From NCBI GenBank assembly GCA_050943115.1, contig JBMNON010000001.1, positions 50,023 to 114,022 on the forward strand: a stretch of 64,000 bases of DNA, read 5' to 3'. Source of the DNA: Patescibacteria group bacterium (lineage in GTDB: Bacteria > Patescibacteriota > Microgenomatia > UBA12405). Below the pieces are notes generated by a model. The model saw nothing but the letters and a program-made list of their open reading frames with translations. It did no database searches and was not told the DNA's origin. Numbering within the stretch: the first letter of the stretch is position 1; each line of letters starts with the position of its first letter. Below are positions 25,115-54,713 of this stretch, piece by piece. The translations under genes were made by a program, and so were the position numbers.

Positions 25115-25777
25115 ATGGTCATCAGCTGGAGTAACATCATTCTGTTTCTTGCGGGGATCGGAATCATCTTCATCGCTTTTCTTGCTTTGGGCGGAGCCAT
25201 CTACTGGTGGTTCTTTAAGAAGCCCACGGAAGAGCAACCCGAAGAGGTCGAGCCTGCCCCCCGACGCCGAGAGGAACACGACGAACCCGTCGTCGAACGT
25301 ACGACTGTACGTCGTGAGACTACGGTTCGCCCCGCGCGTCCACGAGAAGCCGTCATCGAAGAAGAGGTGGAAACTCGTCCCGTCGTCCGTCGTCGTCCGG
25401 CCACCCCCCCCGTTGTCCGCCGTCGTGCTCCAGCCCCCCCCAAGGAGGTAACCTCCTTCAACGAGGCTACCGACAAACTGGTGGATTATGTCGATCGCTA
25501 CGACACGAAAGAGATCCAGCTCCAACGGGACATTCGTCCTGCCTGGTCGGCTTTTCGAAGCTCCCTCGACGCGGCCGTTTCTGTCGGTGACAATCCGAAG
25601 ATCAACGTCACGAAAGTGGCCAAAATCCTCATTGACGCCGAGCAGGACGCCGCCAAGCGAAGCATGCCGGGCTACGCTCGAGAGTTCAGGTCCTACCTGA
25701 AGCAGCTCAACGTGGAGATCACCGAAGAGTCTTCGGACAAATCGGATGTACCACCTCCTCCCGCTCTCTCCGACTGA
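25115..25777 (+). CDS. GC-rich cassette C: N-terminally anchored protein with Arg/Pro/Glu-rich linker and C-terminal domain
   Basis: AAAGGAGCAAC-ATG RBS; TM helix IILFLAGIGIIFIAFLALGGAIYWWFF. Linker PRRREEHDEPVVERTTVRRETTVRPARP...RRRPATPPVVRRRAPAPP; about 60% GC. Confidence 0.5.
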   Translation: MVISWSNIILFLAGIGIIFIAFLALGGAIYWWFFKKPTEEQPEEVEPAPRRREEHDEPVVERTTVRRETTVRPARPREAVIEEEVETRPVVRRRPATPPVVRRRAPAPPKEVTSFNEATDKLVDYVDRYDTKEIQLQRDIRPAWSAFRSSLDAAVSVGDNPKINVTKVAKILIDAEQDAAKRSMPGYAREFRSYLKQLNVEITEESSDKSDVPPPPALSD

Positions 25778-39429: not shown

Positions 39430-39855
39430 ATGCCTAAAAAAATAAAAACTATTGTTAAATTAGCCATTCCCGCAGGTTCTGCCAACCCGGCACCTCCCGT
39501 TGGAACCGCTCTTGGTCCTCAAGGTATCAAAATCATGGACTTCTGCAATGAGTTCAATGAAAAAACCAAAGACATGAGAGGCTCCCTTATTCCTTCTGTT
39601 ATTACTATCTACGAAGACCGCTCCTTCGACTTTATCATCAAGAAGCCCCCGGTTTCTGATATGATCAAAAAAATGGCCGGACTTCAAAAAGGCGCCCAAA
39701 CCACCGGCCGCGAAAAAGTCGGCAAACTCTCACCCGCTCAGGTTGAACAAATTGCACAGGATAAACTGGTCGATTTGAACACCAAAAACCTTGAATCAGC
39801 CAAAAAAACCGTTATGGGCACTGCCCGTTCTATGGGTGTCGAAATTACCGAATAA
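39430..39855 (+). CDS. rplK: 50S ribosomal protein L11
   Basis: MPKKIKTIVKLAIPAGSANPAPPVGTALGPQGIKIMDFCNEFN. Confidence 0.9.
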   Translation: MPKKIKTIVKLAIPAGSANPAPPVGTALGPQGIKIMDFCNEFNEKTKDMRGSLIPSVITIYEDRSFDFIIKKPPVSDMIKKMAGLQKGAQTTGREKVGKLSPAQVEQIAQDKLVDLNTKNLESAKKTVMGTARSMGVEITE

Positions 39856-39886: not shown

Positions 39887-40657
39887 ATGAGCAAAACCAC
39901 AAAAGACCTAAAAGCCAAAAAAGCTCGGGAAGAGCAGGCCCAGGTGGAAGAGCAGGCAACAGAAACTGCTCGCGAGGCCCAAAATCAGGAAGAGGCAGTA
40001 CAGATAGAAAAAGTTGAGACCAATCCTTCCTCGGACACCCAAGACACCTCTGCCGCTACAATTAAAACCGCCAAAACCCGAAGTAAGCAATACAAAACGG
40101 CTAAAGCCAAAGTCGATAAAGACAAGTATTATTCCCTACCGGAAGCTGTATCCCTTGTCAAAAAAACCTCTTACGCCAAATTCGGTGGCAAAGTCGAAGC
40201 TCACGTAGTTGTAACCGATGTTGGAACCGTTGGGGAAATTTCTTTTCCTCACTTGGAAACTGCCGCCAAAAAAATTGCCGTTCTCGACGATAAAGTCCTG
40301 GCAGCCATCAAAGACGGCAATATTGATTTCGATATCCTCATTGCCACACCGGCCACCATGCCCAAACTTCTTCCCTACGCCCGCCTGCTTGGACCCAAAG
40401 GTCTAATGCCCAATCCCAAAAGTGGTACATTAACTGACAAACTACAGGACGCCGTCAAGAAACTTTCTGCTGCCAAAACTGTCCTCAAAACCGAAAAGAA
40501 AGCTCCGGTACTCCACCTGGTCACCGGCCAAGTTTCTCAACCCGAAAAAGAACTGGTAGAAAATATCGATGAACTAATCAAAACCATTGGCGCTACCAAA
40601 ATTAAAAAATTGGTACTGAAAGCCACCATGGGACCAGCTGTCAAAGTAGCTCTTTAA
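39887..40657 (+). CDS. rplA: 50S ribosomal protein L1 with ~60-aa N-terminal extension
   Basis: YYSLPEAVSLVKKTSYAKFGGKVEAHVVV; IATPATMPKLLPYARLLGPKGLMPNPKSGT. Confidence 0.85.
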   Translation: MSKTTKDLKAKKAREEQAQVEEQATETAREAQNQEEAVQIEKVETNPSSDTQDTSAATIKTAKTRSKQYKTAKAKVDKDKYYSLPEAVSLVKKTSYAKFGGKVEAHVVVTDVGTVGEISFPHLETAAKKIAVLDDKVLAAIKDGNIDFDILIATPATMPKLLPYARLLGPKGLMPNPKSGTLTDKLQDAVKKLSAAKTVLKTEKKAPVLHLVTGQVSQPEKELVENIDELIKTIGATKIKKLVLKATMGPAVKVAL

Positions 40658-40672
40658 TCAAAAGACAATTTA

Positions 40673-40703
40673 AAACCCTCCAAACAAACGGAGGGTTTTA
40701 ATT
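40673..40703 (+). terminator. rho-independent terminator after rplA
   Basis: AAACCCTCC-aaacaaac-GGAGGGTTTT. Confidence 0.6.
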
Positions 40704-40716
40704 GTTATGCCCTTGC

Positions 40717-41277
40717 CTACACGCTTACATCAACTGTTCTCACCTGAGCGACTCCGTTTCGGTTAAAAATTCTCTCAACTTCATTACTCCTGCCGTCAGC
40801 TACCGGCACCATCAGCATTACATCTTCACCCCGAACCTCCTCATCGTAATAAGCTCCCGCCTCTTCCCTGACTCCACCGGCTCTCTCCAATGCTCCAATA
40901 AGACCGCCGATAGCTGCTCCCAATACCGCCCCCGTCACTGTTACGGCTGCAATCCCGGTTAACCCCAAAGCTCCGGCTATGGGTCCGACAAACAATATTC
41001 CTGCCAATCCAGGCACAATCGTTGCCACAATACCATAAATCAGGCCTGCAAGGGCTCCGATAATTGCTCCGGTGATAACTCCGTTACCGATATTTCCTGT
41101 CCTATCCCTCCTCATGGTTGTCACGCCCCCCCTTCTTCCAGCCTCACTAACATTACTTTGCCTCCGGGAGCCGCCCAGTTCCATATCCTCGACATCAAAT
41201 CCGGCCCCCCTTAAATCTCTTAAGGCTTTGTCGGCATCGTCGTAGTTATCAAAAATTCCGACCATCATTCCTGCCAT
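40717..41277 (-). CDS. general-stress-like membrane protein (YflT/DUF1269-like N-domain plus glycine-zipper TM segments)
   Basis: GIFDNYDDADKALRDLRGAGFDVEDME N-domain; GxxxG-rich TM region. Confidence 0.35.
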   Translation of the reverse strand: MAGMMVGIFDNYDDADKALRDLRGAGFDVEDMELGGSRRQSNVSEAGRRGGVTTMRRDRTGNIGNGVITGAIIGALAGLIYGIVATIVPGLAGILFVGPIAGALGLTGIAAVTVTGAVLGAAIGGLIGALERAGGVREEAGAYYDEEVRGEDVMLMVPVADGRSNEVERIFNRNGVAQVRTVDVSV

Positions 41278-41403
41278 ACTTGTTCCTCCTGCTTTAATAA
41301 ATAATTATTTACTAATATCTTCGAAAAAAACCTTCAGAAACCAAACAGAAACAAGCAAGAATCAAGTAAGAACCAAAATCAAATATACGATAAAATACTT
41401 TAA

Positions 41404-42630
41404 GTGAAGCAAAAAATATCCATTGTATTTTTGAACTATCTTCGGATTCTCGCAAAAATCCAGCTTTTTAAGATCCGAATTATTCAGATTGCTAAAAAAC
41501 GTCCCCTCTGTATAATCGGGATCACTGGCTCAGCTGGTAAAACCTCCACCCTGTCTGCCCTCCATTCAGCCCTGTCGCCTCAATACCAAATAAAAACTAA
41601 TTCTGGTTCTAATTCCGAATCCGGTATTCCCCTGGACATTTTAGGTTTAAAGATCAAAGAATTCTCTCTTACAAGTTGGCTCAAAATCGCCCTCCTTTCC
41701 ATCTGGAAAATTCTTACAAACTGGCAAAGTTATCAAATATATATTGCCGAAATGGGAATTGATAGCCCTAAAGAGCCCAAAAATATGACTTACCTGTTAA
41801 AAATTTTTACACCCGACATCGGTATCTTTCTCAATGTTAGCCCTGTCCATTTGGAATATTTTGACAGTCTTGATCAAATCGCTTTGGAAAAGGCCAAAAT
41901 GATAGCATCCCTTCCATCCTCGGGTTTTGCCATTCTAAACCTTGAAGATCCTCTTGTGAAAAAATATGCCCAAAATACTCCCGCTCGAATAGTTCCCATC
42001 AAACCCGTCAAAATTAATTTCCCCGGCTTTATTATTCCTGATGTTTATCAGGATTCTTTTGGCGCGGCTATCGCCACAGCCCGGGTTCTTGGTATAAAAA
42101 CAGAAACGGCCACCATCAATATCATAAACAATTTTCGCCTCCCTCCCGGCCGTGCTTCCATTCTCCGCGGCCTTAATAATTCCACAATTATTGACAGTAC
42201 TTATAACGCTTCACCCTTGGCCGCTACTGAAATGCTAAACTTCCTCCGCAACTTCCCGCCCCCCCGAATTGCTGTCCTCGGAGACATGAGGGAGCTTGGA
42301 CAAGCCTCCCGGGAAGAACACCAAAAACTTTACACCAAAGCCATCAAATCAAGCGACCTTCTCATTAGTGTAGGTCCCCTAACTTGTAAGTACTTTGGAC
42401 CAAAAGCCCAAAAATTCGACTTTTGGTGGCAGGCAGCCGACTATATGAAAACCCATCTTCCCACCAACGCTACCGTCTTGGTTAAAGGCTCCCAGAATAC
42501 GATTTTCCTCGAAGAACTAGTCAAGTCTCTCCTCCAAAATCCTTCCGACAAACAACTCTTATGCCGCCAAAACAACTACTGGCAAAAAACCAAAAGTGCC
42601 TTTCGCAAATCCATCAAAAAACCCTCCTAG
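41404..42630 (+). CDS. Mur ligase family protein (MurF-like central plus C-terminal domains, no N-terminal domain)
   Basis: IGITGSAGKTST P-loop; IAEMGIDSP...IGIFLNVSPVHLEYF; IIDSTYNASPLAATEMLNFL; RIAVLGDMRELG. Confidence 0.6.
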   Translation: MKQKISIVFLNYLRILAKIQLFKIRIIQIAKKRPLCIIGITGSAGKTSTLSALHSALSPQYQIKTNSGSNSESGIPLDILGLKIKEFSLTSWLKIALLSIWKILTNWQSYQIYIAEMGIDSPKEPKNMTYLLKIFTPDIGIFLNVSPVHLEYFDSLDQIALEKAKMIASLPSSGFAILNLEDPLVKKYAQNTPARIVPIKPVKINFPGFIIPDVYQDSFGAAIATARVLGIKTETATINIINNFRLPPGRASILRGLNNSTIIDSTYNASPLAATEMLNFLRNFPPPRIAVLGDMRELGQASREEHQKLYTKAIKSSDLLISVGPLTCKYFGPKAQKFDFWWQAADYMKTHLPTNATVLVKGSQNTIFLEELVKSLLQNPSDKQLLCRQNNYWQKTKSAFRKSIKKPS

Positions 42631-43196
42631 GCCGAGTATTCTTTATCCTTCTTCATCTCTTTTTCAATCAAGTTTCTCAAAAACACTGATCTTGGCAGTC
42701 TCTTTTTCTTGGCCACCCAATCAAGATAGTTTAATATCTTGGGCGAAACAAAAAAGTTAAAACGGACATCGGCGCTTTTAATTGCCTCCTCAATGGCTTC
42801 TTCCAAGGCAGCCTCCACGTTACCCAGCTCATATTGAACAATTTGCATCTTGTCATAATCGGAACCAAAAAACAAACCTGGCTTCCGGTCTCCTGCAAAC
42901 AACACCACCAATGGCTTATTTAATGCCATGACTTCAGTCAATTCATGGCCGACTGACAAGCTTTGGGTTGACACCTCAGCCACGATTACTTGGGCTTTCT
43001 TAATTTCTGATATAATTTTTACGTAATTTTTCCTAGCTTCGGCTTTTGACAAACTATCAACACTTTGAGAACCGTCCTTTAAAATATGTTCCGAATACAC
43101 CTTATGCCCCATCTTGCTTAATACTCTTACAATTTCCTCATAATTTTCACTGAACTCTTTCTTTCCTCGGAGAGATGCGGTAAAATATATTCTCAT
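42627..43196 (-). CDS. DNPH1/Rcl-like 2'-deoxynucleoside 5'-phosphate N-hydrolase / nucleoside 2-deoxyribosyltransferase superfamily, with C-terminal extension
   Basis: MRIYFTASLRG and VIVAEVSTQSLSVGHELT match IYFCGSIRGG / AEVTQPSLGVGYELG of DNPH1. Confidence 0.5.
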   Translation of the reverse strand: MRIYFTASLRGKKEFSENYEEIVRVLSKMGHKVYSEHILKDGSQSVDSLSKAEARKNYVKIISEIKKAQVIVAEVSTQSLSVGHELTEVMALNKPLVVLFAGDRKPGLFFGSDYDKMQIVQYELGNVEAALEEAIEEAIKSADVRFNFFVSPKILNYLDWVAKKKRLPRSVFLRNLIEKEMKKDKEYSA

Positions 43197-43223
43197 AAAA
43201 CAGATTATATCATTATTAATCCC

Positions 43224-44231
43224 TTGATAACAGATTCTAAAAAGATTGCCATTTATTTAACTAATAAATGTAACCTTAAATGCAAACACTGCTTCATGGA
43301 AGGATCTCCCATGAACGACAGTTTCTTAAGCTGGGGTCAGATAAAAACGGCTCTCAGCAATTTCTTTTCCCAGGACTTCAAACATGTCGAACTTTCCGGA
43401 GGCGAATCCTGCCTCTCCCCCTATTTTCTCGACGCTATAAATGAGGCCAAAAGGATCGGCTACACTGTCGGTGTCAGTACCAATGGCACTAACGGTCATA
43501 TATTTAAAATTATTAATCCCAAAATTGTAGACAAGATCACTTTCAGCCTCGATGGCGCTACCGCCTCAACCCATGCCCGTCTTCGCGGACCACAAGCTTA
43601 TGAGCTCTGTTTAAACAACATCAAAAAAGCGGTTTCCCAAGGGTTTCGTGTCGAAGTTGTTTATACCGTTCACCGCTATAATCTCAAAGAAATCGCTCCT
43701 GTTATTAAACTTCTCGATAAGCTCAAAGTAGACCGTCTCACTTTTGGTTTTATCAACAATGCCGGGTCGGCTACTTTAAATCAGCATTTCCTTCTTGAAG
43801 CCAAAAATTGGATAACAGCCAAAAAAGATATCGAAGCCCATTCTAACACCCAACACATGAGCATCCGCTATCCGCCCCTTTTTGTCACTAAGTCCGAATT
43901 TGAGGCTATTAAAACTAATACCGATTACCGTTGTCTTGTCGCTGACCCTGTCAAAATTGAAATCTACCCTGATGGATACTTTTACGGTTGCTGCTTTGTT
44001 ACATCCAACAAAGATTTATCCCTAGGTAAAATATTTGACGATCATGTTGAGGCCGACAACACTAATGCCAAAAACTTCTCCCAAAAATATTGTGCCAAAA
44101 GCTGTCCGGCAATTCAAACTAGTCTTATCTTCTCCAACAATAACAAACTAGTTCCCGTCTGCCTCTACTGTAAAATTATTACCCAGCCCCATCCTGTCAA
44201 CAAGATGCTCGGTGCCAAATCCCATAGTTGA
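43224..44231 (+). CDS. radical SAM/SPASM-like protein (paralog of 4418..5464)
   Basis: CNLKCKHCF (CxxxCxxC), GGESCL, C-terminal FYGCCF...CAKSCP...CLYC; shares a Y.YGCC motif with the first rSAM. Confidence 0.7.
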   Translation: MITDSKKIAIYLTNKCNLKCKHCFMEGSPMNDSFLSWGQIKTALSNFFSQDFKHVELSGGESCLSPYFLDAINEAKRIGYTVGVSTNGTNGHIFKIINPKIVDKITFSLDGATASTHARLRGPQAYELCLNNIKKAVSQGFRVEVVYTVHRYNLKEIAPVIKLLDKLKVDRLTFGFINNAGSATLNQHFLLEAKNWITAKKDIEAHSNTQHMSIRYPPLFVTKSEFEAIKTNTDYRCLVADPVKIEIYPDGYFYGCCFVTSNKDLSLGKIFDDHVEADNTNAKNFSQKYCAKSCPAIQTSLIFSNNNKLVPVCLYCKIITQPHPVNKMLGAKSHS

Positions 44232-45005
44232 CATTGAAGCCACCCGACATGCTTCTTCAAGGGCATCTTTTTTACCCGCTCCGTTTAAAAGCTGAGCTAT
44301 AAATACCCCGGCAACCACATCTCCGGCCCCGATAGTGTCCCGAACTTCAATATTGTCAATTGTAGCCGCCTTCACCTCTAATTTCCCCTTCGAATAATAT
44401 TCTGCCCCCTTTGCACCCAATTTTAAAACCATATCTGTGTCTAAATTCTCTCCTCCAATTTCCCTCCCTTCAAACTCATTGGCAAAACCTAAATTGCACT
44501 TTTCCATCACTTTTTTTACCAAATTCGGTCTTGTTCTTGTAAACGTGTCAAATGTATCACAAGATATCGGAACATCACCAAAACCCATGGTCTTAATTTG
44601 TTCGAGCCATTCCAGTTGCTGTTCTGGCGATGAAGCCGCCAAATGTATCCACCCAACTCCTTCTATATCTTCCACGTCTTTAATATCAATATTTTTGCCC
44701 AAATCACCTTCGCTCCGGAAAGCCCTTCTGCCTCCTTCTTCGTTCAGCCAGTGTCGGTCAGTCATTTTCCCGCTATCTATTCCTAAATAACTAATATCAA
44801 TACCTAAATTCTTCAATATTGACAAATCAAAATCCTTTCCTATCCTGCTTTTTATTACTACTTGTCCCACAGGCAAATAAAAGGAGGCTGCTAAACTAAC
44901 ATGAAATGCCGATCCTCCCCAGAATTTATGGCACACTGAATTCCTTTTAACGATATCTCTGGCCAAATGGCCGACAACTAAAAGTTTACCCTTAATCAAA
45001 TTCAC
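44148..45005 (-). CDS. PfkB-family carbohydrate/nucleoside kinase
   Basis: DTIGAGDVVAGVF (PfkB signature 2), N-terminal GG-like motif; the 3' end overlaps the rSAM by 84 nt. Confidence 0.65.
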   Translation of the reverse strand: MNLIKGKLLVVGHLARDIVKRNSVCHKFWGGSAFHVSLAASFYLPVGQVVIKSRIGKDFDLSILKNLGIDISYLGIDSGKMTDRHWLNEEGGRRAFRSEGDLGKNIDIKDVEDIEGVGWIHLAASSPEQQLEWLEQIKTMGFGDVPISCDTFDTFTRTRPNLVKKVMEKCNLGFANEFEGREIGGENLDTDMVLKLGAKGAEYYSKGKLEVKAATIDNIEVRDTIGAGDVVAGVFIAQLLNGAGKKDALEEACRVASMSTMGFGTEHLVDRMGLGNNFTVEADGN

Positions 45006-45063
45006 GCCAAATTATAACACCCCCCAAACTCTTTTCTTCTCCATCAAATTTCGCAATCATTTT

Positions 45064-46077
45064 CTAATTTATTAAATTCTTTTTATAAAACAAGACGTCC
45101 CCTTCTGCCACCTCCTCCCAATTACCTGAAAGGTTGTGATCATCATTTGAGTATACATAAAGCATTACTTCTTTATCAACCGCTCTCAATCCTTCAACCA
45201 CTTCCTCCTGCCACGTTACTTCACACCAAGCATCTGCAGTTCCCTGGTGGATCACTATTGGCGCTGCTACCCAATCATAGTAATTTTCAAAAGCATATCT
45301 TCGGCTGTCGTGATGTTTTTCGAAATTATTTATAGCCTTAATTACTGCCTTCCCACCATCATCTAATCCTGACGCCGTATCCAATACACTTTTTGGAAAA
45401 GGATTTGTCATTGGCGCCCACAAGCTGGTCGGATAATTTCCACTGGTAATTTCCAAAACGGACAGGGCAATCTGCCCGCCATTACTATGGGCCCAAATTC
45501 CGATGTTATTTTCATCTACAAATCCGACCTCTTTTACCGATTCTATTAAATCCAATACTGTCGGCACTTTCTCAAAGCGTGCTTCCATCATATCCAGACT
45601 CTCCGCATCGGACTCTCCGAATCCCAAAAAATCTATGGAAAATGTTACAAAACCATTCTCTGCCAGCTTATCAGCCATTCTCCAGCTTCCCGATCCTACA
45701 TAGTAGCCAGACTTGTCCGCATATCCACGTATCATAATAATTGCTGGTTTCTTCCGGCTTTCCTCTGGATTCGGTATGTTTACCATACCTGAAATTTTTT
45801 TTCCGTCCGAATAAAAATAGAATACTCTACTGTCAATATTTTCCAGAACCTCTTTTCTCCTTATGCAAACCCCTTCCGGTTCTCCGCCAAACTCTATTTT
45901 GCTAACTTTCCCGCCCCTTTTTTTCAAGTTATCAAAATCGTACTTTTCCAAATAATTTTCTGCCTCCTGTTCCCTCTCTCCTGTCGGTTGGGTTAGTTTA
46001 AGACCCCACTTCCAATAACCAAAAGCTGTTGCTACCAAGCCCATTATCAAACCCAAAACTACAAAAAGTCGCTTCAT
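45064..46077 (-). CDS. secreted alpha/beta hydrolase (S9/DLH-like)
   Basis: N-terminal signal/TM, nucleophile elbow AHSNGG, later D and H (DDHN). Confidence 0.55.
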   Translation of the reverse strand: MKRLFVVLGLIMGLVATAFGYWKWGLKLTQPTGEREQEAENYLEKYDFDNLKKRGGKVSKIEFGGEPEGVCIRRKEVLENIDSRVFYFYSDGKKISGMVNIPNPEESRKKPAIIMIRGYADKSGYYVGSGSWRMADKLAENGFVTFSIDFLGFGESDAESLDMMEARFEKVPTVLDLIESVKEVGFVDENNIGIWAHSNGGQIALSVLEITSGNYPTSLWAPMTNPFPKSVLDTASGLDDGGKAVIKAINNFEKHHDSRRYAFENYYDWVAAPIVIHQGTADAWCEVTWQEEVVEGLRAVDKEVMLYVYSNDDHNLSGNWEEVAEGDVLFYKKNLIN

Positions 46078-46136
46078 TACAATTATTTTACCCCAAACAC
46101 CTTCTCTCTAAATACTTCCAAGTGCTATCATCACTT

Positions 46137-47633
46137 ATGTCTTCTTTGCTGAACTTCCTCAAAAAACATCGCTTGCTTATTTTCATTTTAGTATTGGGTT
46201 TATCTTTTCGTTTCTATAATTATCCTAATCGTTGGGTTTTGAACCAAGATCAAGCTCGTGATGTTTCTATCGCCCTTTATGCAATTAGAAACCGAACCCT
46301 CCCCCTTCTTGGTTCACCTTCCTCCGCAGGTCCTTTTAACTTCGGACCTCTTTATGATTGGCTCGTTATTATTACAACCCTGCTTTTCCCCTTCACTTCT
46401 GGTCCTTGGGTTGCCTTTACCCTGCTTTCAACCCTTGTTATCGTTATCTTCTATTTAATCGGACGTCAATTTGCCGATCATTCAACCGGGCTCATTTTTG
46501 CTCTTACTACCGCTTTTGCTGCTGGTCCCATTGGTAATGCTCCCGACATGCTCAACACGGTTATTGTTCTTTTTTGGGTATCTCTTGCCTTTCTTTGCTT
46601 AACTTTTCTAATCACAAAAAAGAAAATTGCCTACGCCATTCCACTATCTTTTTTTATCGGCGCTGCTCTCAACTCCCATTTTCAATCTCTCGGCTTATTT
46701 GCCCTGCTTCTGTCAGCGTTTCTCATCAACCCATTTAATTTTAAGCAAAAAATTCAAACCGGATTCCTTTTTTTATTCGGTTTTCTTCTCGCCTTCCTGC
46801 CTCTTTTAGTCTTTGATATAACTCATAAATGGATCTGGATTAAAAGTGTTTTTGCTTATTACACCAATGGTCAAAACAAATTTCATGTTCCGATCCGTTG
46901 GCTTACTGATCTTCGTGATTTTTGGCCCCAATTATGGGGCAGCACCATTCTTGATCTACCCTATGCCGGCTACTTTTTTTTGGTTCTCTTCTTTGTAGCC
47001 ATTTATCTTTATTACCACAAACACCGTCGATTACCTCTTCCTCTGATCATTCTAACCGTCTCGTTACTTATCCAAGTTGTCCTGCTTCGTTATTACAAAG
47101 GTGTTCGTTCTCGTGAATACCTCATTGTTTTTCATTCCTACTTCATTTTTTATACAGGCTGGCTCCTTTCTGTGTTTATTCACACCAATCGTCGCTTAGG
47201 CCAATTTTTAATTGGCCTTTTTTTACTAATCTCTTGTTACTCTAATTACAAAATTATACAAAAAACTTCTCAAGCTAAAATAATCCTAACTTTCAAAAAA
47301 AATATTGACAGTCTGCATTTGGGAAATTTTGAATACTATGTCAAAAATTCTCCCAATGATCAGCTTAATACTCCTCTCTTTTACTTGCTATATAAAGAAA
47401 ACCGTATTAATCCTTCGGCATACAAAATTGGCACTTGTTATCCCAAACACGATTCTGACTATTGCCCTTCACCGGAGTATATTATTCACCAGTCAACAAA
47501 ACCTCCTTATATTCTTTACAACCTGTCTCATTTATCATCCGAGGACCTAGCCAGATTAGGTTTCTACCAATATACCCCCAAAAACATATACGAACGCCTT
47601 TTTGTTAATTATCCTCAAGCATTAAATAATTGA
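46137..47633 (+). CDS. GT-C glycosyltransferase (GT39/GT83, ArnT/PMT-like)
   Basis: More than 10 TM helices. First loop FRFYNYPNRWVLNQDQARDVSIALYAI...GPFNFGPLYDWL matches the ArnT/PMT_2 N-terminal pattern. Start moved to MSSLLNF. Confidence 0.55.
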   Translation: MSSLLNFLKKHRLLIFILVLGLSFRFYNYPNRWVLNQDQARDVSIALYAIRNRTLPLLGSPSSAGPFNFGPLYDWLVIITTLLFPFTSGPWVAFTLLSTLVIVIFYLIGRQFADHSTGLIFALTTAFAAGPIGNAPDMLNTVIVLFWVSLAFLCLTFLITKKKIAYAIPLSFFIGAALNSHFQSLGLFALLLSAFLINPFNFKQKIQTGFLFLFGFLLAFLPLLVFDITHKWIWIKSVFAYYTNGQNKFHVPIRWLTDLRDFWPQLWGSTILDLPYAGYFFLVLFFVAIYLYYHKHRRLPLPLIILTVSLLIQVVLLRYYKGVRSREYLIVFHSYFIFYTGWLLSVFIHTNRRLGQFLIGLFLLISCYSNYKIIQKTSQAKIILTFKKNIDSLHLGNFEYYVKNSPNDQLNTPLFYLLYKENRINPSAYKIGTCYPKHDSDYCPSPEYIIHQSTKPPYILYNLSHLSSEDLARLGFYQYTPKNIYERLFVNYPQALNN

Positions 47634-47639
47634 TTCTTT

Positions 47640-47784
47640 TGAAAACATCGTTTATAATCAGCCTATCCTTAAACCGAAGACAGTAGGTACCCGCAACCCG
47701 GGTCGAAGCATCCTACCGAGGCAGACACAAATCAATTTTGTTGTTGACACCTCGCTTCGGCGGGGTTTTTTATTTTAAATACAT
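47640..47784 (+). promoter_or_regulatory. putative rplJ (L10) leader with attenuator-like hairpin
   Basis: Structured 145-nt leader ending CCUCGC-UUCG-GCGGGG followed by UUUUUUAUUUU, immediately upstream of rplJ. Confidence 0.45.
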
Positions 47785-48297
47785 ATGCCAACCCAACAAA
47801 AAATCGACCAGGTCAAAGAAGTTGCTGATAAAATCAGCGAATCCAAATCAGCCGCTCTCGTTCAATACCAGGGCCTGAACGCTGAAGATATATCAGCCCT
47901 TCGGGATAATATCAAACAGGCCGGCGGCCGAATGGAAGTTATCAAAAACACTCTCCTAATGCGTGCTTTGGAAAGTTTAGGTATAAAACTTCCTGAAAAA
48001 CTTACCGGCCCTACCTCAATTACCTATTGTCTTGATGACGAAATCGCCCCCCTAAAAGAAATCGACAAAGTCAACAAAGACAAAGAATTAACCGGGTTCA
48101 AATACGGTATCTTTGAGAACAAGCTGCTTTCAGTCGAAGAGTTGACTAAGTTCCTAATTCTTCCTTCCAAATCCACCCTCATTGCTCAATTTGTCGGTGG
48201 TTTGGCCAATCCCCTGACCCGTCTCGTTTATTCTCTTAAATATAGCCATACCAGATTGGCTTTGGTTCTCAAAGCCATCTCAGAAAAACAGCAATAA
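47785..48297 (+). CDS. rplJ: 50S ribosomal protein L10
   Basis: MPTQQKIDQVKEVADKISESKSAALVQYQGLNAEDISALR. Confidence 0.85.
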   Translation: MPTQQKIDQVKEVADKISESKSAALVQYQGLNAEDISALRDNIKQAGGRMEVIKNTLLMRALESLGIKLPEKLTGPTSITYCLDDEIAPLKEIDKVNKDKELTGFKYGIFENKLLSVEELTKFLILPSKSTLIAQFVGGLANPLTRLVYSLKYSHTRLALVLKAISEKQQ

Positions 48298-48326: not shown

Positions 48327-48740
48327 ATGTCAGAACAAACAACCCAAGTTTCAGAAAAACTCCAGAAAATCATCGATTCTGTTTCTGAACTCTCCGTTCT
48401 CGAGCTCTCCGATCTTGTCAAGGCTCTTGAAGAAAAATTCGATGTTCAGGCTGTCGCTGCCGCTCCTGTAGCTGCTGCCGGTACCGCTCCCGCCGCCAAT
48501 GGCGAAGCCGCCGCTCCCGCTGAAGAGAAAAGCGAATTTGAAGTTGTTATCACCAATGCCGGTGCTAACAAAATCGCCGTTATCAAAGCTGTCCGCGAGT
48601 TCAAGCCGGAACTTGGCCTCAAAGAAGCCAAAGATATGGTCGATGCTGTCCCTGCTTCTCTTGGTACCATGAAAAAAGAGGATGCGGAAAATGCCAAAAC
48701 CAAACTCACCGAAGCCGGTGCCCAAGTTGACCTTAAATAA
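48327..48740 (+). CDS. rplL: 50S ribosomal protein L7/L12
   Basis: Ala-rich hinge, then [22 protein letters not shown]...[10 protein letters not shown]. Confidence 0.9.
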
Positions 48741-48759: not shown

Positions 48760-48790
48760 AAACCCTCACGATAACGTGGGGGTTTTTGGT
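48760..48790 (+). terminator. rho-independent terminator after rplL
   Basis: CCCTCACG-ataa-CGTGGGGG followed by TTTTT. Confidence 0.65.
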
Positions 48791-48793
48791 TGT

Positions 48794-50299
48794 TTAAGTT
48801 GTCAGTCCGTCTGTGGACAGCCACATCGATAACTTCCTAAAAATATTTCTGTCTGCCGCCGATGGTGTATGGGTGGTGTGAATAAAACAGTTTTTTAATT
48901 TTCCCAAGTAAGATAAAGCCTTTCTTGCCAGTGGATTATCCCTGGCCGATATCGCCCAGGCCATCATCATTTCCGAACAATCCAGCGAACAGGACTTGTC
49001 ACCCAACCTTTTATTAAGCAAATTTACTTCCTTGATAACCGAAGGCGATATCAATTCAAACTTATCATCTATCCCCGCCAATTCCTTGACGGCGTTTAAT
49101 ACCGCCGCTGCTTCGGCATGCAACAATGAAGAATTCTTTCCGCAAATCACGCTCCCGTCCGCAAGCTCAATTGCCGCCCCGCAATAAATTCCCATACTCC
49201 CCTTGTCTTTTCTCTTTTTTGCCTCCGCTCTGGCTGTCCTGGCCTTGCTAACCACTCTCAAATATTCCTCGTCTATTCCGACCTTGTCCAATAATTTTCC
49301 CATCCTCTCCAGGGTATCTTTATCCACCAACCCCTTTCTATACTCTTCGCGGTAACGAAACACATAAAAATTAATCTCCTTTTTTGCCGCTTCTTTCAAT
49401 ATTTCATCGTTGACAATCCCGCTTGATAATCTGTTAAACCCCATATCTGTCGGTGACCTATAACTCCTGGCAAAATTTCCCTTCTTCATCAACCTTTCAA
49501 AAATACTCTTCATAATCGGAAATGAATCCACATCCCGGTTGTAATTAACCGCTGAAACTCCATAAGATTTTTTATGGAAAGTATCGATCACATTGTAATC
49601 CCCCAAATCGGCGGTTGCTGCCTCATAAGCTATATTTACTGGGTGCTCTAAAGGTAAATCCCACACCGGGAAAGTCTCAAACTTGGCATAACCCGAATTC
49701 AATCCCATTTTTTCTTCATGATATATTTGCCCCAAACAAGTCGACAACTTTCCCGATCCTGGCCCTGCCCCCCAAACTACCACCAACTTATTCTTTGGTG
49801 CTAAATATTCGTCTGCCCCAAAACCCCTATCACTCAAAATTTCCCTGATCTTCTTGGGATAACCTCTGATCTCCCGCCTTTTGAACACTTTTATCCCCAT
49901 TTGCCCAAGTCTTCTTTCAAACACGTCTGCCTCCCGTTCCCCTTCGTATCTGTTTATTGCTACACCTTCAACCTCCAACCCCTCCTCCATTAGTCCACTT
50001 ATGGCTTTTATTGTCGCCTCATCGTAACCCAACCCCCAATCTCCTCTCAATTTACCATCAGCCAGCTGCTTGGCTGATATACAGTAAATTACCCCCATCG
50101 TCCTCTTTAGGCTTTTTAGAAGTGCCAATTTTGCATTCGGATCATAACCCAGCAAAGTTCTGGAAGCATGAAAATCATCCATTAGTTTCCCTCCAAACTC
50201 CAAATACAATCTTCCGCTAAACTTCTCCAGCCTCTTCTCGACGGCAATTTTTTGGGCTTTCAAGTAGGTTTCAGTATCAAAACCTACTTTTTTCATCAT
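48794..50299 (-). CDS. UPF0371/DUF1846 family protein
   Basis: RLYLEFGGKLMDDFHASR, VVVWGAGPGSGKLSTCLGQIYHE, GYAKFETFPVWDLPLEHPVNIAYEAATADL, RSPTDMG match family hallmarks. Confidence 0.7.
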   Translation of the reverse strand: MMKKVGFDTETYLKAQKIAVEKRLEKFSGRLYLEFGGKLMDDFHASRTLLGYDPNAKLALLKSLKRTMGVIYCISAKQLADGKLRGDWGLGYDEATIKAISGLMEEGLEVEGVAINRYEGEREADVFERRLGQMGIKVFKRREIRGYPKKIREILSDRGFGADEYLAPKNKLVVVWGAGPGSGKLSTCLGQIYHEEKMGLNSGYAKFETFPVWDLPLEHPVNIAYEAATADLGDYNVIDTFHKKSYGVSAVNYNRDVDSFPIMKSIFERLMKKGNFARSYRSPTDMGFNRLSSGIVNDEILKEAAKKEINFYVFRYREEYRKGLVDKDTLERMGKLLDKVGIDEEYLRVVSKARTARAEAKKRKDKGSMGIYCGAAIELADGSVICGKNSSLLHAEAAAVLNAVKELAGIDDKFELISPSVIKEVNLLNKRLGDKSCSLDCSEMMMAWAISARDNPLARKALSYLGKLKNCFIHTTHTPSAADRNIFRKLSMWLSTDGLTT

Positions 50300-51704: not shown

Positions 51705-54700
51705 TTAGTCTCCGTAATACCAGGAAACCGCTTCTTTGAGATCTTTTGACATACTGAAAATATAAGCAGGATTGTATGTCACCACTACCGCCGGACTGGT
51801 ATTGTTCGTTGAAGCATCGGTATAACTCCGGGTAAATTGAACTCCGTTTGCCAGAATTATTCCTGAAATTGTCAACCTGGAAGTGCTATCCCCACCAGCG
51901 CTAAAACTACCATTGCCCACATAGACCCCCTCCACCCTGCTGACACTCTCGTCAACAGTAATACTGCCCTTTACCACCACCATCAGGAACCTGTTGCCAA
52001 CCAAATCAATTGGCGTAGTGGTAATATTTAAGTTCCCATTGACAAAAACCATTTCCAACTCACTGTCAGCATTTACCAGGTTCATTATCTGGCTTGAAGT
52101 AGCATTTCCGTCAATCAACTCCCCTTCACCCATTCCCTGATAATACCTATTGAAGAAGAAATCATAACCATAAGAATCATCAACTATACTCGCCCCACTT
52201 CTATACCAGTTGTTTGGACTCCCGTAAGATCCGCTGGCCGGATTAAGTTGCCCTGCAATCACTAGACCGTTGTTACTGCTAGTTGTGCTTATATCCAATG
52301 CTGGTATACATGTAGATGAACTGGCACAAGTACTGGGCACTTCTCTTGTTATCGTATTTTCTCCGACAATTCCTCCCCCCTCAACTTGATACCATGGGTC
52401 TTGGTGTCTATAAGATGAAAAATCTACCATAATATTTGTATTTGCAGAATACGGATTAACCACTGATGAATTAATTATGAAATTCAAATTGCAGCCTATT
52501 ATTTCACCCACCCTTCCCAAATCATCCAGCCTGGCTTCCATTGGCTCCGACCCATCAGTAAAACCCGAAATTACCGCTTGATATTGCTTGCCCCAACGCA
52601 AATGGTTGCCGTTACTATTGGAATGGTATTGGGGATCAGTCGTGGGAACTACTGTCATTGCTTTGTCTTCGGTACCAATTCCGTCAAACAACAATGAATA
52701 ACTTGATCTTAACACGGTAGTATACAAACTCGGATCCGGACAAACACCACTAGTACCAGTCTTGTCATACATGGACCCGCTTACTTCGACATTACAATCC
52801 CAAATCTTTAAATTCCTGGTCGTGTCTGTATAAGAGCCATTATTACTCCATACCCCCATTGAATCCTGTACTCGTACTTCAATATCATATGTCCTTTCAG
52901 CCATAGTGCTTTCAAACCTGATCGGGAATATATATCTTCTGGTCGTTGAGTTAACGGTTTCTACTGTAGTTGCTGTAGACGTCAAAACTGTTCCGGGAGA
53001 ATTATTGTTAGAGGTACTGATACTTAACACTGAACCGCTGATCGATCCGTCCAAAGTTATCGTATTACTGCCATTAACCATTCTGACCACAACCCGGCTT
53101 ATAGTACTTGCCCCCTGGGCGTCGCTGGCTTCCACCACCAATCTCATCATCCTTTCGGTAGCTCCGCTGACAAACCTCTGGTCACAAACCTGATTATAAA
53201 GATTTCCGGTATGTTCTCCCGGCACGGTTACATCCGCCGGTGTCCTAATCGAAAATGTTCCGACTGTCGGCGCTGAATTCACCACACTAAACTTGCCATA
53301 ATCACTACTGCTGCAGCTCAACCAACCATCACAGTTATCCCTGGAAGCTGTTATGGCGCTGTCTGCAGATCCGATACCTGGCGGCGGCGGACAAAAAGGG
53401 TTTCCGGAACACTTAGAAGCATCCGGGCCTGGATTCGGAGGGCTACTGGGCAAATCACAATGAACAAAATATGTTCCCAAAGGTAAATTGGTAATCGTCC
53501 GGCTAAAAGTTGCAGGAACATTCGTCTGGCTATAAGTTGTAGTCCCAATTTGGTAATAATTATTACCGGTTGCATTTGTGTACATGGGGTAAGAAGATAA
53601 AGCTGTCCCGCTCACCACTCCGCCATCACTTTTTTCCAGAAACATCCTTACCGGCTCACCCAAAGAATTTCCCACACCCGATACAGTCAGGGTGACACTA
53701 CCTCCGGGATTCACGTCTGAAGAACTGACTGTCACACTACACCTCTTAGGAATATCAACTTGCTCATTAATAATGCTATAGTTCACACTCTGTGAACACT
53801 GACTTGAACAAATGCTCGGATAATCATCTCGGCAGTTTACCCACGATCTAGTCCAAGTGTAATTGCCGGGATAATAACCCCTATAAGCTGTCACATTGTC
53901 CGGTGCCCAAAAGCGGGTGGGGTCACAGTCTGTTCTGGGATTCATGGATCCGTCAGGATTCAGGCCGTGGTTAGCCAAACCACCATTGTTGGTAATACTG
54001 GGGTCCCCGTTCGGCCGGCAGTCATTGTTAATGTATTCATGTCCCTGGCAGCCCCCTAATACAAAATCTATAGTATCACCTACTCTAACCCTATTTGTTC
54101 CATCTGCCGGGTTTCTCACATTCATCCCCGTTACCTGGTATGAGTTACATGGCGCTGCGGTCCTGGGTACACTAGTTCCGGTATTATTCGACCAAATGGT
54201 GAAAGCCATGCCTCCCTGCCAATAAATCCCATTGTTATCATAACATCCACAGCTCCCGCCCGGGCAATCTTTCTCTTGAACATCCAATTGGCCCGTCCTG
54301 TCATTTGGCACCTCTACCCTTAGGTTGATTGTTTCCCCTGGCCGCAAGCAATACAAATACCTATCAGCCGAAATAGCAGGGTCATTTTCATTGGGGTTAC
54401 CATCAGAAGCCGCATCTACATTTCCATTACACTGATAACGCCAGTCATCTGGAGTCGGATTACTTAGATTATCGAAACTATGGTAACTGCATATGTTTTC
54501 AAGTGCCTCCAGAACTACAGTATAGTTCTTGTTGTTAGTAATCACCAAAGTGTCTTCATTTAATTTATTCCTCCCATAACAGCTCTGTCCTGGGCTGCAG
54601 CCCATACCACCTTCCGGATAACAAACCAAATTTTGTGCGACAACTATACTTGAAAAACCATACAACCAAGCTACACTCACTACCCCAAATATTAGCAATA

Positions 54701-54713
54701 GCTTCTTTGTCAT
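51705..54713 (-). CDS. giant (1002 aa) secreted Cys-rich surface protein, unknown function
   Basis: Signal peptide MTKKLLLIFGVVSVAWLYGFSSIVVA. Many Cys, Asn/Gly/Ser/Thr-rich, likely beta-rich repeats; no enzymatic motif recognised. Confidence 0.5.
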   Translation of the reverse strand: MTKKLLLIFGVVSVAWLYGFSSIVVAQNLVCYPEGGMGCSPGQSCYGRNKLNEDTLVITNNKNYTVVLEALENICSYHSFDNLSNPTPDDWRYQCNGNVDAASDGNPNENDPAISADRYLYCLRPGETINLRVEVPNDRTGQLDVQEKDCPGGSCGCYDNNGIYWQGGMAFTIWSNNTGTSVPRTAAPCNSYQVTGMNVRNPADGTNRVRVGDTIDFVLGGCQGHEYINNDCRPNGDPSITNNGGLANHGLNPDGSMNPRTDCDPTRFWAPDNVTAYRGYYPGNYTWTRSWVNCRDDYPSICSSQCSQSVNYSIINEQVDIPKRCSVTVSSSDVNPGGSVTLTVSGVGNSLGEPVRMFLEKSDGGVVSGTALSSYPMYTNATGNNYYQIGTTTYSQTNVPATFSRTITNLPLGTYFVHCDLPSSPPNPGPDASKCSGNPFCPPPPGIGSADSAITASRDNCDGWLSCSSSDYGKFSVVNSAPTVGTFSIRTPADVTVPGEHTGNLYNQVCDQRFVSGATERMMRLVVEASDAQGASTISRVVVRMVNGSNTITLDGSISGSVLSISTSNNNSPGTVLTSTATTVETVNSTTRRYIFPIRFESTMAERTYDIEVRVQDSMGVWSNNGSYTDTTRNLKIWDCNVEVSGSMYDKTGTSGVCPDPSLYTTVLRSSYSLLFDGIGTEDKAMTVVPTTDPQYHSNSNGNHLRWGKQYQAVISGFTDGSEPMEARLDDLGRVGEIIGCNLNFIINSSVVNPYSANTNIMVDFSSYRHQDPWYQVEGGGIVGENTITREVPSTCASSSTCIPALDISTTSSNNGLVIAGQLNPASGSYGSPNNWYRSGASIVDDSYGYDFFFNRYYQGMGEGELIDGNATSSQIMNLVNADSELEMVFVNGNLNITTTPIDLVGNRFLMVVVKGSITVDESVSRVEGVYVGNGSFSAGGDSTSRLTISGIILANGVQFTRSYTDASTNNTSPAVVVTYNPAYIFSMSKDLKEAVSWYYGD

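Follow-up and report, generated by a model that had tools for sequence, protein, structure and literature searches.

Seven genes between rplA and rplJ

The window, by which we mean the whole 64-kb stretch of DNA analysed, contains the ribosomal protein gene pairs rplK-rplA and rplJ-rplL separated by 7.1 kb and seven genes. The list of open reading frames (ORFs), Pfam and NCBIfam agree on the order secE, nusG, rplK, rplA, seven genes, rplJ and rplL; the seven genes between rplA and rplJ had been described in an earlier sequence-only reading. The seven genes are numbered g1 to g7:

39430-39855, plus strand: rplK (called Ribosomal_L11 in an identical contig, L090)
39887-40657, plus strand: rplA (Pfam Ribosomal_L1, 5e-22; called L1 in the same identical contig)
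40670-40701, both strands: terminator-like hairpin with a 12-13 bp stem, between the convergent rplA and g1
40717-41277, minus strand: g1, YflT-like (Pfam YflT, 24.1 bits, under the 26.2 cut-off)
41404-42630, plus strand: g2, MurF-like Mur ligase with M and C domains (PF08245, 1.2e-20; PF02875, 2.1e-10)
42627-43196, minus strand: g3, Nuc_deoxyrib_tr-like, DNPH1/MilB-like (PF05014, 23.3 bits, under the 28.8 gathering score)
43224-44231, plus strand: g4, radical SAM (rSAM) protein (Pfam PF04055 Radical_SAM, 8.7e-18)
44148-45005, minus strand: g5, PfkB/ribokinase-family kinase (Pfam PfkB, 1.7e-19; ribokinase-family PDB sequence matches)
45064-46077, minus strand: g6, S9/DLH-like alpha/beta hydrolase (Pfam) with a hydrophobic N-terminal anchor or signal sequence
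46137-47633, plus strand: g7, PMT_2/GT-C-like multi-pass membrane protein (PF13231, PMT_2, 25.5 bits versus a 26.1 cut-off)
47630-47658, plus strand: sigma-70-like promoter match (TTGATT-17-TATAAT, a consensus match only), just 5' of the L10 leader
47656-47781, plus strand: L10 leader RF00557 (Rfam, 55.8 bits versus a gathering score of 44), directly 5' of rplJ
47785-48297, plus strand: rplJ (Pfam Ribosomal_L10, 2.5e-21)
48327-48740, plus strand: rplL (ORF list and profile searches)
48760-48785, plus strand: terminator-like hairpin after rplL (terminator scan)

In E. coli, the L11 operon and the L10/beta operon are separately promoted and regulated units. Compared with the canonical E. coli cluster (secE-nusG-rplKA-rplJL-rpoBC), each half is intact here, with secE and nusG upstream of rplK-rplA and an L10 leader before rplJ, and the break falls at the boundary of the two E. 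coli units. Unlike in E. coli, seven genes lie between rplA and rplJ, and rplL is followed not by rpoBC but by an opposite-strand DUF1846 gene, a feature common to the Shapirobacteria relatives examined. The L10 leader also precedes rplJ in three relatives (L097, L099 and L101), and by its sequence match it is predicted to mark rplJL as a separately regulated unit. The terminator that the sequence-only reading had placed after rplA corresponds to the hairpin at 40670-40701, which scored as terminator-like. Its statement that the L10 leader and rplJ resume after the block also holds, but the coding start of rplJ is at 47785 rather than 47640.

Related contigs contain homologues of each of the seven ORFs, which are therefore real genes. 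Together they would form at least five transcription units (g1; g2; g3; g4; g5-g6; g7).

A MurF-like ligase with a short N-terminus

The product of g1 consists of a YflT-like N-domain followed by a glycine-rich segment that is probably membrane-embedded, and is 80-81% identical (tblastn) to its counterparts in the two nearest relatives, L097 and L101.

Like MurF (UDP-MurNAc-tripeptide--D-Ala-D-Ala ligase; PDB 3zl8, 4cvk and 1gg4), g2 has central ATP-binding and C-terminal domains, with the P-loop GITGSAGKTS at residue 39. MurF proteins take the first seven places among its PDB sequence matches, and murF (TIGR01143, 1.4e-52) is by far its best NCBIfam family. Unlike canonical MurF, it scores below the TIGR01143 cut-off (179 versus 288.6 bits) and lacks the canonical N-terminal domain 1 of ~80 residues, carrying instead a conserved helix-like segment of ~35 amino acids; the alignment with T. 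maritima MurF (3zl8) pairs its residue 36 with residue 83. The P-loop motif was found in 10 relatives, in every case at residue 31-39, indicating that the short N-terminus is lineage-wide.

The MurF-like gene adjoins ddl in ten relatives (in L105 the Ddl-like match is weak and on the opposite strand) and alr in L001, and from this context a D-Ala-D-Ala adding role is predicted for g2. Against this assignment stand the sub-cut-off profile score and the missing partner, as no ddl was found in the g1-g7 block or in the whole 64-kb window. The g2 gene is the conserved anchor of the rplA-rplJ interval and very probably the housekeeping MurF, probably essential, rather than an accessory gene.

A DNPH1-like/RHH protein and a radical SAM protein

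The g3 gene is convergent with g2, the two stop codons overlapping by 4 bp, and encodes a two-domain protein: a nucleotide N-glycosidase fold like that of DNPH1 and MilB, joined to a highly conserved RHH-like domain at the C-terminus. The RHH-like domain had been absent from the sequence-only reading, which was otherwise essentially right on gene identities (a MurF-like g2 without its N-domain, a DNPH1-like g3, a radical SAM g4, a PfkB g5, a hydrolase g6 and a GT-C-like g7). The AF2 model of g3 (pLDDT 84) has the flavodoxin-like NDT fold, and its top Foldseek PDB matches are DNPH1 (E 3e-8, prob 1.00, TMt 0.76-0.84, ~30% identity). The modelled N-domain superposes on both DNPH1 and MilB, members of the DNPH1 (Rcl)/MilB/nucleoside 2-deoxyribosyltransferase superfamily, from which g3 differs in its fused RHH-like domain, its several subtypes and its sub-cut-off Pfam score; many family members have a precomputed PF05014 match.

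The family comprises 437 cluster representatives at E<=1e-10 (clusters counted at 50% identity), mostly of ~190 amino acids and matched end to end. In an alignment of 52 sequences, E74 is invariant and E85 nearly so, making both candidates for the catalytic glutamate nucleophile. We distinguish several subtypes, g3 belonging to subtype A; in subtype B, Y/I replaces 'HE', so that the Glu of the 'GHE' motif is missing. The last ~45 C-terminal residues are nearly invariant across subtypes.

Divergent from g3, across a 27-bp spacer, is g4. Its CX3CX2C motif lies at residues 16-23 (C16, C20 and C23 are invariant in the alignment), and the start must therefore be at 43224. Five further cysteines towards the C-terminus are invariant (C237, C256, C257, C294 and C313) in a twitch/SPASM-like pattern, giving a Cys-rich C-terminus; Pfam returned no match to PF13186 (SPASM). 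The AF2 model (pLDDT 78) is a partial TIM barrel whose nearest folds are SkfB, BlsE, DesII, viperin and MoaA, the best being the twitch enzyme SkfB (TMq 0.62). The g4 protein shares with these twitch/SPASM radical SAM enzymes the motif, the partial barrel of its model and the extra C-terminal cysteines, but differs from each in its distance (TM 0.5-0.65, identity <=21%), and no NCBIfam equivalog profile reaches its cut-off. A word-indexed search returned 17 homologues, 16 at 47-76% identity and one being the identical cluster. An rSAM gene occupies the same position in L105, L106 and L107.

The 3' end of g5 overlaps that of g4 by 84 bp; in L105 and L106, the gene after rSAM is a g5 orthologue. 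Orthologues of g6, a membrane-anchored or secreted hydrolase, are 50-81% identical and occupy the same position in seven relatives (L097, L099, L101, L103, L105, L106 and L107). The longest ORF for g7 begins at 46029; the called start at 46137, giving 498 amino acids, is probably correct. Orthologues of g7 (50-55% identical) lie directly 5' of rplJ in L097 and L101; that of L105, with a weak PMT_2 match, has the same position on a contig that ends before rplJ.

Gene order in Candidatus Shapirobacteria

We compared the interval with 12 Candidatus Shapirobacteria relatives, picked by the length of their contigs and not a systematic sample (L10 61-81% identical where rplJ is on the contig). Percentages are identities to the window:

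L101 (L10 81%): YflT, MurF, DNPH1-like, hydrolase, GT-C
L097 (L10 79%): the same set as L101, plus Ddl and a methyltransferase
L104, L103, L102, L099 (L10 68-71%): Ddl and/or MurF with a DNPH1-like gene, plus other genes
L105, L106, L107 (L1 54-59%; L10 61-63% in L106 and L107): DNPH1-like, rSAM, (PfkB), hydrolase, (GT-C), in the window's order and orientation
L108 (minimal form): L1-Ddl-MurF-DNPH1-like-two ORFs-L10
L001 (after rplA): Ddl-Alr-MurF-HAD-DNPH1-like

A murF-like gene paired with a DNPH1-like/RHH gene lies beside rplA or rplJ in all 12, and the nine contigs spanning both ribosomal genes have an rplA-rplJ gap of 4-9 kb. The shared core is (ddl)-murF-like plus the convergent DNPH1-like/RHH gene; the window and its nearest relatives also share the YflT-like, hydrolase and GT-C genes, and each of the seven families occurs in the interval of at least one relative. 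The wider synteny, nrdD-nrdR-secE-nusG-rplKA ... rplJL ... followed by a sugar-1-phosphate nucleotidyltransferase gene, is likewise common to the window and its relatives, and in the relatives continues with a 2-hydroxyacid dehydrogenase gene, a merR-like gene and ruvBA.

Identities of MurF to the window fall roughly with those of L10 (L10/MurF 81/72, 79/70, 71/58, 68/58, 63/55 and 61/52%), L099 being off the trend (71/48%). Hydrolase identities (81, 71, 57, 51, 52 and 50%) do so as well, which fits vertical descent. The DNPH1-like subtype, unlike MurF and the hydrolase, which broadly do so, does not track L10 identity: counterparts of g3 share 65-69% identity with it in the distant L105-L107 versus 42-48% in L097 and L101, where the subtype is different.

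Further afield, 35 of 77 informative loci have an unbroken rplKAJL. The window does depart from that arrangement, as the sequence-only reading had stressed; however, the contiguous loci are mostly outside Patescibacteria, and among the 15 nearest L1 loci (Patescibacteria) only three are clearly contiguous. In other Microgenomates, the genes that follow rplA are unrelated ones.

Composition and mobility signatures

GC content of the block (0.39-0.45) and plus-strand GC skew (-0.22 to -0.39) are the same as in the flanks. Third-position skew of the seven genes (-0.16 to -0.62) lies inside the range of the window (-0.09 to -0.68), whatever the gene orientation; by this measure g4 (-0.62) and g5 (-0.34) are native. 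Over the whole 64 kb, one strand is ~30% richer in C than G (skew ~-0.3), independent of gene orientation, and this extreme bias is also seen in other Shapirobacteria loci. A similar strand disparity is reported for the Microgenomates order UBA1400 (29.8% C versus 15.0% G; Kadnikov et al. 2020, PMC7143001), a paper in which the name Shapirobacteria does not occur; here the bias is in Shapirobacteria loci, over the 64 kb seen.

Pfam detected no integrase or transposase domain among the seven genes, and a search for defence systems gave nothing in the block beyond a generic rSAM match. The block contains no tRNA gene, the nearest being at 14.6-15.1 kb, and the search for flanking direct repeats or att-like sites returned only short, chance-level repeats.

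A probably old, lineage-wide arrangement

We consider it likely (probability roughly 0.85) that Candidatus Shapirobacteria (Patescibacteria, Microgenomates) inherited this gene order from their ancestor and that the 7-kb interval is the form it takes in this species, not a recent island, 'ancestral' resting here on 12 relatives and pairwise identities. This reading draws on the observed gene content, positional conservation, co-divergence with the ribosomal proteins and composition. The rplKA and rplJL operons would be separated, exactly at a natural operon boundary, by a resident neighbourhood. Going by the predicted roles of the seven products, it would be built around peptidoglycan-precursor genes, (ddl)-murF, and the convergent DNPH1-like/RHH gene, followed by a variable slot, here rSAM and PfkB, and then by putative envelope genes for the membrane-anchored alpha/beta hydrolase and the GT-C glycosyltransferase. 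As rplJL appears to keep its own promoter-like site and the L10 leader for autoregulation, the regulation of ribosomal proteins should be indifferent to whatever lies in between. This would account for the tolerance of the break and for the drift of its content from one species to another.

Strict ancestry of the whole block is put in doubt by L097 and L101, where rSAM and PfkB are missing and the DNPH1-like gene is of another subtype. Exchange among Shapirobacteria, as opposed to strictly vertical inheritance, could therefore account for the stretch at ~42.6-45.0 kb. In such a scheme, the subtype-A DNPH1-like/RHH, rSAM and PfkB genes would be a replaceable cassette within an ancestral block. 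The nearest relatives would have lost or replaced it, or else recombination with another Shapirobacterium would have brought it back here, with the 3' end of murF or the RHH-coding stretch and the hydrolase gene as homologous flanks. The slot after murF does differ between relatives: subtype A accompanies rSAM and sometimes PfkB as well (the window and L105-L107), subtype B either a methyltransferase (L097 and L099) or a HAD hydrolase (L102 and L103), and subtype C either a methyltransferase (in L099) or a P-loop protein (in L101). The closeness of g3 to the distant relatives and the near-invariant C-terminus of its family also suit such exchange. However, the identities to L105-L107 (g3 65-69%, rSAM 54-74%) are about those of the ribosomal proteins (L10 61-63%, L1 54-59%), with none of the excess similarity that follows recent transfer, and the GC3 skew of g4 and g5 is native, although a same-orientation transfer from another Shapirobacterium would leave no compositional trace, the strand bias being lineage-wide. 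Furthermore, L099 carries two DNPH1-like subtypes in tandem, so that paralogy in the ancestor, with differential loss, accounts for the pattern just as well. We regard turnover of this kind as possible but unlikely, and infer that the patchy distribution of rSAM and PfkB reflects ancestral presence followed by replacement rather than re-acquisition.

The sequence-only reading had instead proposed an accessory pathway, for the envelope or for nucleoside modification, acquired into a conserved locus; as a recent horizontal insertion of a 7-kb island in this organism, this is very improbable. The contiguous rplKAJL loci elsewhere and the mixed orientation and functions of the seven genes would favour it, and mixed-function genes interrupting a conserved cluster do recall genomic islands and integrative elements. 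Yet the block differs from these in lacking an integrase, tRNA, att repeat or compositional deviation (its GC content and strand skew are native), in being present in relatives and in co-diverging with its flanks. Species with ~80% L10 identity (L097 and L101) have five of the seven genes at this position, the more distant L105-L107 have rSAM and PfkB there, gene identities co-vary with those of the ribosomal proteins, and g2 is a probable essential MurF. The comparison with related genomes that had been suggested as a check thus points to an ancestral lineage trait, the outcome which the sequence-only reading had itself named as speaking against an insertion. Nor do the seven genes make up one pathway, since at least five transcription units are predicted for them and relatives combine them differently.

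Chimeric joins at rplA/g1 or g7/rplJ, an artefact that the sequence-only reading had named as a possible refutation, have no evidence in their favour and are scarcely conceivable, as four independent SRA assemblies have the same gene order and junctions with strain-level differences (96-100% amino acid identity), and relatives have the same junction genes, YflT adjoining rplA and GT-C adjoining the L10 leader.

The variable slot after murF

The locus as a whole is ordinary lineage-specific synteny, and its mildly interesting remainder is the variable slot after murF. We raise, as a speculation that is unlikely to hold, that the g3 family is an undescribed nucleotide-sensing or nucleotide-sanitising regulator or enzyme. 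It would be part of a lineage-specific modular system that links the salvage or modification of nucleosides to the making of cell-wall precursors in Shapirobacteria. Its partner enzymes may be nucleotide-acting and the slot swappable. A g3-family gene lies next to or near a murF-like gene in the 12 relatives, usually convergently, and its subtypes pair with different partners: a BlsE/viperin/SkfB-like radical SAM protein and PfkB here, and methyltransferases, a HAD phosphatase or a P-loop protein elsewhere.

Gene content between rplA and rplJ

Seven genes (g1 to g7) lie between rplA and rplJ in the window, as borne out by the ORF list, Pfam and NCBIfam. Upstream of rplK are nrdD and nrdR (both on the minus strand), secE and nusG (Pfam, NCBIfam and ORF list). 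From rplK onwards (rplK and rplA called by the ORF list, Pfam and NCBIfam), the features are:

39430-39855, +, rplK
39887-40657, +, rplA
40670-40701, terminator-like hairpin, scored on both strands
40717-41277, -, g1, YflT-like
41404-42630, +, g2, Mur ligase
42627-43196, -, g3, Nuc_deoxyrib_tr-like
43224-44231, +, g4, radical SAM (rSAM)
44148-45005, -, g5, PfkB
45064-46077, -, g6, alpha/beta hydrolase
46137-47633, +, g7, PMT_2-like membrane protein
47630-47658, promoter-like site
47656-47781, L10 leader (Rfam, 55.8 bits)
47785-48297, +, rplJ
48327-48740, +, rplL
48760-48785, terminator-like hairpin
48794-50299, -, DUF1846 gene (419 bits; 78% identical in the relative L101), in the place after rplL

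The mixed orientations of g1-g7 point to at least five transcription units, so the block is not one operon. The sequence-only reading, whose gene calls proved largely right (Pfam, NCBIfam, PDB sequence matches and fold searches), had considered that the junctions might be chimeric. The exact g2 protein is present on contigs of several SRA runs, and four SRA contigs (L090-L093) cover most or all of the region in identical order with 96-100% amino acid identity (strain level), which rules out an assembly artefact. rpoBC does not lie 3' of rplL in the window; DUF1846, a mannose-1-phosphate guanylyltransferase-like gene and a 1,002-aa ORF (51705-54713, minus strand) are found instead, the last having no Pfam match and the weakest third-position (GC3) skew in the window (-0.09).

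Synteny in Candidatus Shapirobacteria

A scan of a genome collection with L1 placed the window in Patescibacteria/Microgenomates; the universal motif KGLMPNPK dominated the matches, yet the scan still yielded an outgroup panel and the nearest species representative, a Candidatus Shapirobacteria MAG (L001; nusG 83%, L11 77%, nrdD 73%, L1 59% identity). L10 homologues at 62-81% identity were abundant, several labelled Shapirobacteria by their sources. Scanning metagenome contigs with the g2 protein gave, among the matches listed, only distant MurF (25-29% identity, unrelated organisms) and was useless for synteny. Contexts were taken from homologues of L10, of the rSAM protein and, in one case, of g3, and window proteins were mapped onto them by tblastn.

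Genes for a MurF-like ligase and a DNPH1-like/ribbon-helix-helix (RHH) protein adjoin rplA or rplJ in 12/12 relatives, and rplA and rplJ are 4-9 kb apart in the nine contigs spanning both.

Gene content of the interval in 12 Shapirobacteria relatives (identity to the window in brackets; strand where noted)
L101 (L10 81%): YflT(-), MurF(+), DNPH1-like(-), P-loop protein(-), hydrolase(-), GT-C(+)
L097 (L10 79%): YflT(-), Ddl(-), MurF(+), DNPH1-like(-), methyltransferase(-), hydrolase(-), GT-C(+)
L100 (L10 72%): only 1.8 kb available upstream of rplJ; uninformative on the interval
L104 (L10 71%): CmpB-like, Ddl(-), MurF(+), DNPH1-like(-), small ORFs
L102 (L10 71%): extended version containing another kind of Mur ligase, aminotransferase, FemAB, HAD, DNPH1-like
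L099 (L10 71%; 1.1-Mb contig): Ddl(-), MurF(+), two DNPH1-like interleaved with two methyltransferases, hydrolase(-); rplA >10 kb away
L103 (L10 68%): 170-aa gene(-), Ddl(-), MurF(+), HAD(-), DNPH1-like(-), hydrolase(-), small ORFs
L105 (rSAM 73-74%): Hsp70-like, MurF, Ddl-like, C39 peptidase, DNPH1-like(-), rSAM(+), PfkB(-), hydrolase(-), two small ORFs, GT-C(+); contig stops short of rplJ
L106 (rSAM 62-63%): ..., Ddl(-), MurF(+), HAD(-), DNPH1-like(-), rSAM(+), PfkB(-), hydrolase(-)
L107 (rSAM 51-54%; 949-kb contig): ..., Ddl(-), MurF(+), DNPH1-like(-), rSAM(+), hydrolase(-)
L108 (g3 45%; 837-kb contig): minimal form with Ddl, MurF, DNPH1-like, two ORFs
L001 (L1 59%): Ddl(-), Alr(+), MurF(+), HAD(-), DNPH1-like(-); contig stops short of rplJ

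All seven gene families of the window thus occur in the rplA-rplJ interval of other Shapirobacteria, so the situation is the one that the sequence-only reading had itself set against its proposal of an acquired 7-kb accessory insertion, namely that the arrangement is common to all related genomes. Window and relatives also agree in the wider frame, with nrdD-nrdR-secE-nusG-rplKA upstream and a sugar-1-phosphate nucleotidyltransferase gene after rplJL; further downstream, the relatives carry a 2-hydroxyacid dehydrogenase gene, a merR-like gene and ruvBA. An AdoCbl-II riboswitch match in L108 (18779-18849; 37.1 bits against a gathering threshold of 36.5) lies beside nrdD and Cob_adeno_trans genes, and Rfam reported no match at the equivalent place in the window.

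Descent of the block and tolerance of the break

Identity of block genes to the window declines roughly in step with that of the flanking ribosomal proteins (tblastn). L10/MurF pairs run 81/72, 79/70, 71/58, 68/58, 63/55 and 61/52; L099, at 71/48, falls outside this series. The hydrolase gives 81, 71, 57, 51, 52 and 50%. A gene recently inverted, or recently imported from an unbiased genome, should stand out by its skew; none of the seven does (plus-strand GC3 skew -0.16, -0.48, -0.28, -0.62, -0.34, -0.35 and -0.51, inside the window range of -0.09 to -0.68), and composition agrees with the trend in the identities. No tRNA was found near the block and Pfam revealed no integrase among its genes. 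Flanking direct repeats or att-like sites, a check put forward with the insertion proposal, did not emerge: a repeat search gave only 14-28-nt imperfect matches inside coding regions. PADLOC returned a single match, to pVip models (69.7 bits), which is generic for radical SAM proteins and was unaccompanied by a kinase or any other defence partner. This is no defence-system signature, and a defence island was rejected. We consider it likely (probability roughly 0.85), from these sequence comparisons, that the lineage as a whole inherited this rplA-rplJ arrangement from an ancestor, the break falling at an operon boundary and enclosing a variable slot; interpretation as an acquired accessory insertion is not supported.

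E. coli transcribes and regulates rplKA separately from rplJL(-rpoBC), and rplJL is autoregulated through the L10 leader. The leader is intact in the window and in L097, L099 and L101, whose upstream neighbours differ. Given this separate regulation and the intact leader, the intervening block is not expected to disturb regulation; with the leader kept beside rplJL, a break at the operon boundary would be tolerable whatever the upstream content.

Such breaks are common. Among 77 informative L1 loci, rplJ lies within 600 bp in 35, mostly outside Patescibacteria; rplJL lies 0.6-8 kb downstream in 13 and is undetected within at least 3 kb in 29, some of them possibly tblastn false negatives. Only 3 of the 15 nearest loci have a clearly contiguous rplKAJL, and other Microgenomates carry unrelated genes 3' of rplA (for example, transketolase-, cytidylate-kinase- and tRNA-synthetase-like ORFs, judged by their N-terminal sequences). 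What is specific to Shapirobacteria, on present comparisons, is the ddl-murF-DNPH1-like content and not the break. Because rplKAJL is often broken at the operon boundary in Patescibacteria, and the break here is probably old and vertically inherited, gene-order breaks should not by themselves count as evidence of acquisition in this group; an island-like interruption of a 'universal' rplKAJL is an attractive but wrong reading, corrected here.

The MurF-like ligase

The best profile match of g2 is MurF TIGR01143 (1.4e-52, below cut-off), and MurF proteins take the first seven places among its PDB sequence matches. Residue 36 of g2 pairs with residue 83 of T. maritima MurF in the alignment, so a segment of ~35 aa stands in for the canonical N-domain, as the sequence-only call of a MurF-like ligase lacking this domain had it. 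The short form recurs in 10/10 relatives in which the P-loop motif was found (P-loop at residue 31-39); its N-terminal segment is conserved (KQKISxxFLxYLRxLAKIQLxKI), and the start codon is usually GTG. ddl adjoins or lies near murF in ten relatives (the L105 match is weak) and was found neither in the block, nor in the whole 64-kb window, nor in L101. From its adjacency to ddl and alr in relatives, g2 is most likely the housekeeping MurF of the lineage. Literature searches on MurF in CPR found nothing.

The DNPH1-like/RHH family and the variable slot

The predicted model of g3 is confident (pLDDT 84). In a fold search, its first ~140 residues matched DNPH1 (E 3e-8, TMt about 0.8, about 30% identity) and MilB, in keeping with its earlier description as a DNPH1-like enzyme; the final ~45 residues hardly vary and appear RHH-like in alignment and model. 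The family comprises 437 cluster representatives at E<=1e-10 (50% identity clusters), most of them ~190 aa long and aligned over their full length.

At least three subtypes exist, each with its own neighbouring enzyme. In every case, subtype A (window and L105-L107; 65-70% identical among themselves) lies beside the rSAM gene in divergent orientation. In subtype B (L097, L102-L104 and one L099 copy, L099b), the Glu of the conserved 'GHE' motif is missing, and a methyltransferase or HAD hydrolase is adjacent in 4/5 loci; subtype C (L099a and L101a) adjoins a methyltransferase or P-loop protein. The window's closest relatives by ribosomal proteins hold subtype B or C, not A. Ancestral tandem paralogues, differentially lost, fit this pattern, and L099 still holds two DNPH1-like copies, as expected of tandem paralogy with loss. 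Exchange among Shapirobacteria of the slot, the variable stretch after murF that here holds g4 and g5, could likewise scatter the subtypes but seems unlikely: identities of g3 and the rSAM protein to L105-L107 are no higher than ribosomal-protein divergence predicts, and so do not point to a recent transfer. From the pairing with nucleotide-acting enzymes one may speculate on a modular function in nucleoside salvage or modification.

The remaining block genes

g4, described from sequence as an rSAM/SPASM protein, has a CX3CX2C motif (residues 16-23) and, in the alignment, five invariant C-terminal cysteines; its closest folds (SkfB, BlsE, DesII, viperin and MoaA) are of low identity, and profile and fold searches yield family-level similarity only, too little to assign a substrate. 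The motif's position, with which homologues concur, places the true start at the TTG at 43224; public calls of this rSAM protein (306 aa in Logan, 311 aa in JGI) begin 3' of the motif (window 43224-43311). By Pfam, with PDB sequence matches for g5, g5 is a generic ribokinase-family kinase, g6 an S9/DLH-like hydrolase whose N-terminus is hydrophobic, and g7 a multi-TM protein scoring just below the PMT_2 threshold.

Strand G/C bias

Every 2-kb bin of the 64-kb window has a plus-strand GC skew between -0.13 and -0.49, and third-position skew on that strand is negative for all ~70 ORFs in either orientation (-0.09 to -0.68). The 11 Shapirobacteria loci checked, from L001 and L097-L107, shared the bias (-0.16 to -0.35); seven other Patescibacteria loci ranged from -0.12 to +0.23. 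It resembles the whole-chromosome disparity of the Microgenomates order UBA1400 (29.8% C versus 15.0% G; PMC7143001), although here it is seen in a 64-kb window and loci only. That paper does not mention Shapirobacteria, and literature searches on GC skew in this group found nothing. In the loci checked, extreme strand G/C bias extends to Shapirobacteria. Together with the N-domain-less MurF and the DNPH1-like/RHH family, it may interest work on CPR cell envelopes and nucleotide salvage, and alters no major open question.

Four ORFs (2798-3640, 18198-18848, 21363-22013 and 24938-25777) combine a GC content of 0.52-0.59 with weak skew; none has a Pfam match, and most have a hydrophobic signal or anchor segment. 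A foreign origin was considered and set aside, as their composition probably reflects the Pro/Thr/Ala-rich proteins that they encode.
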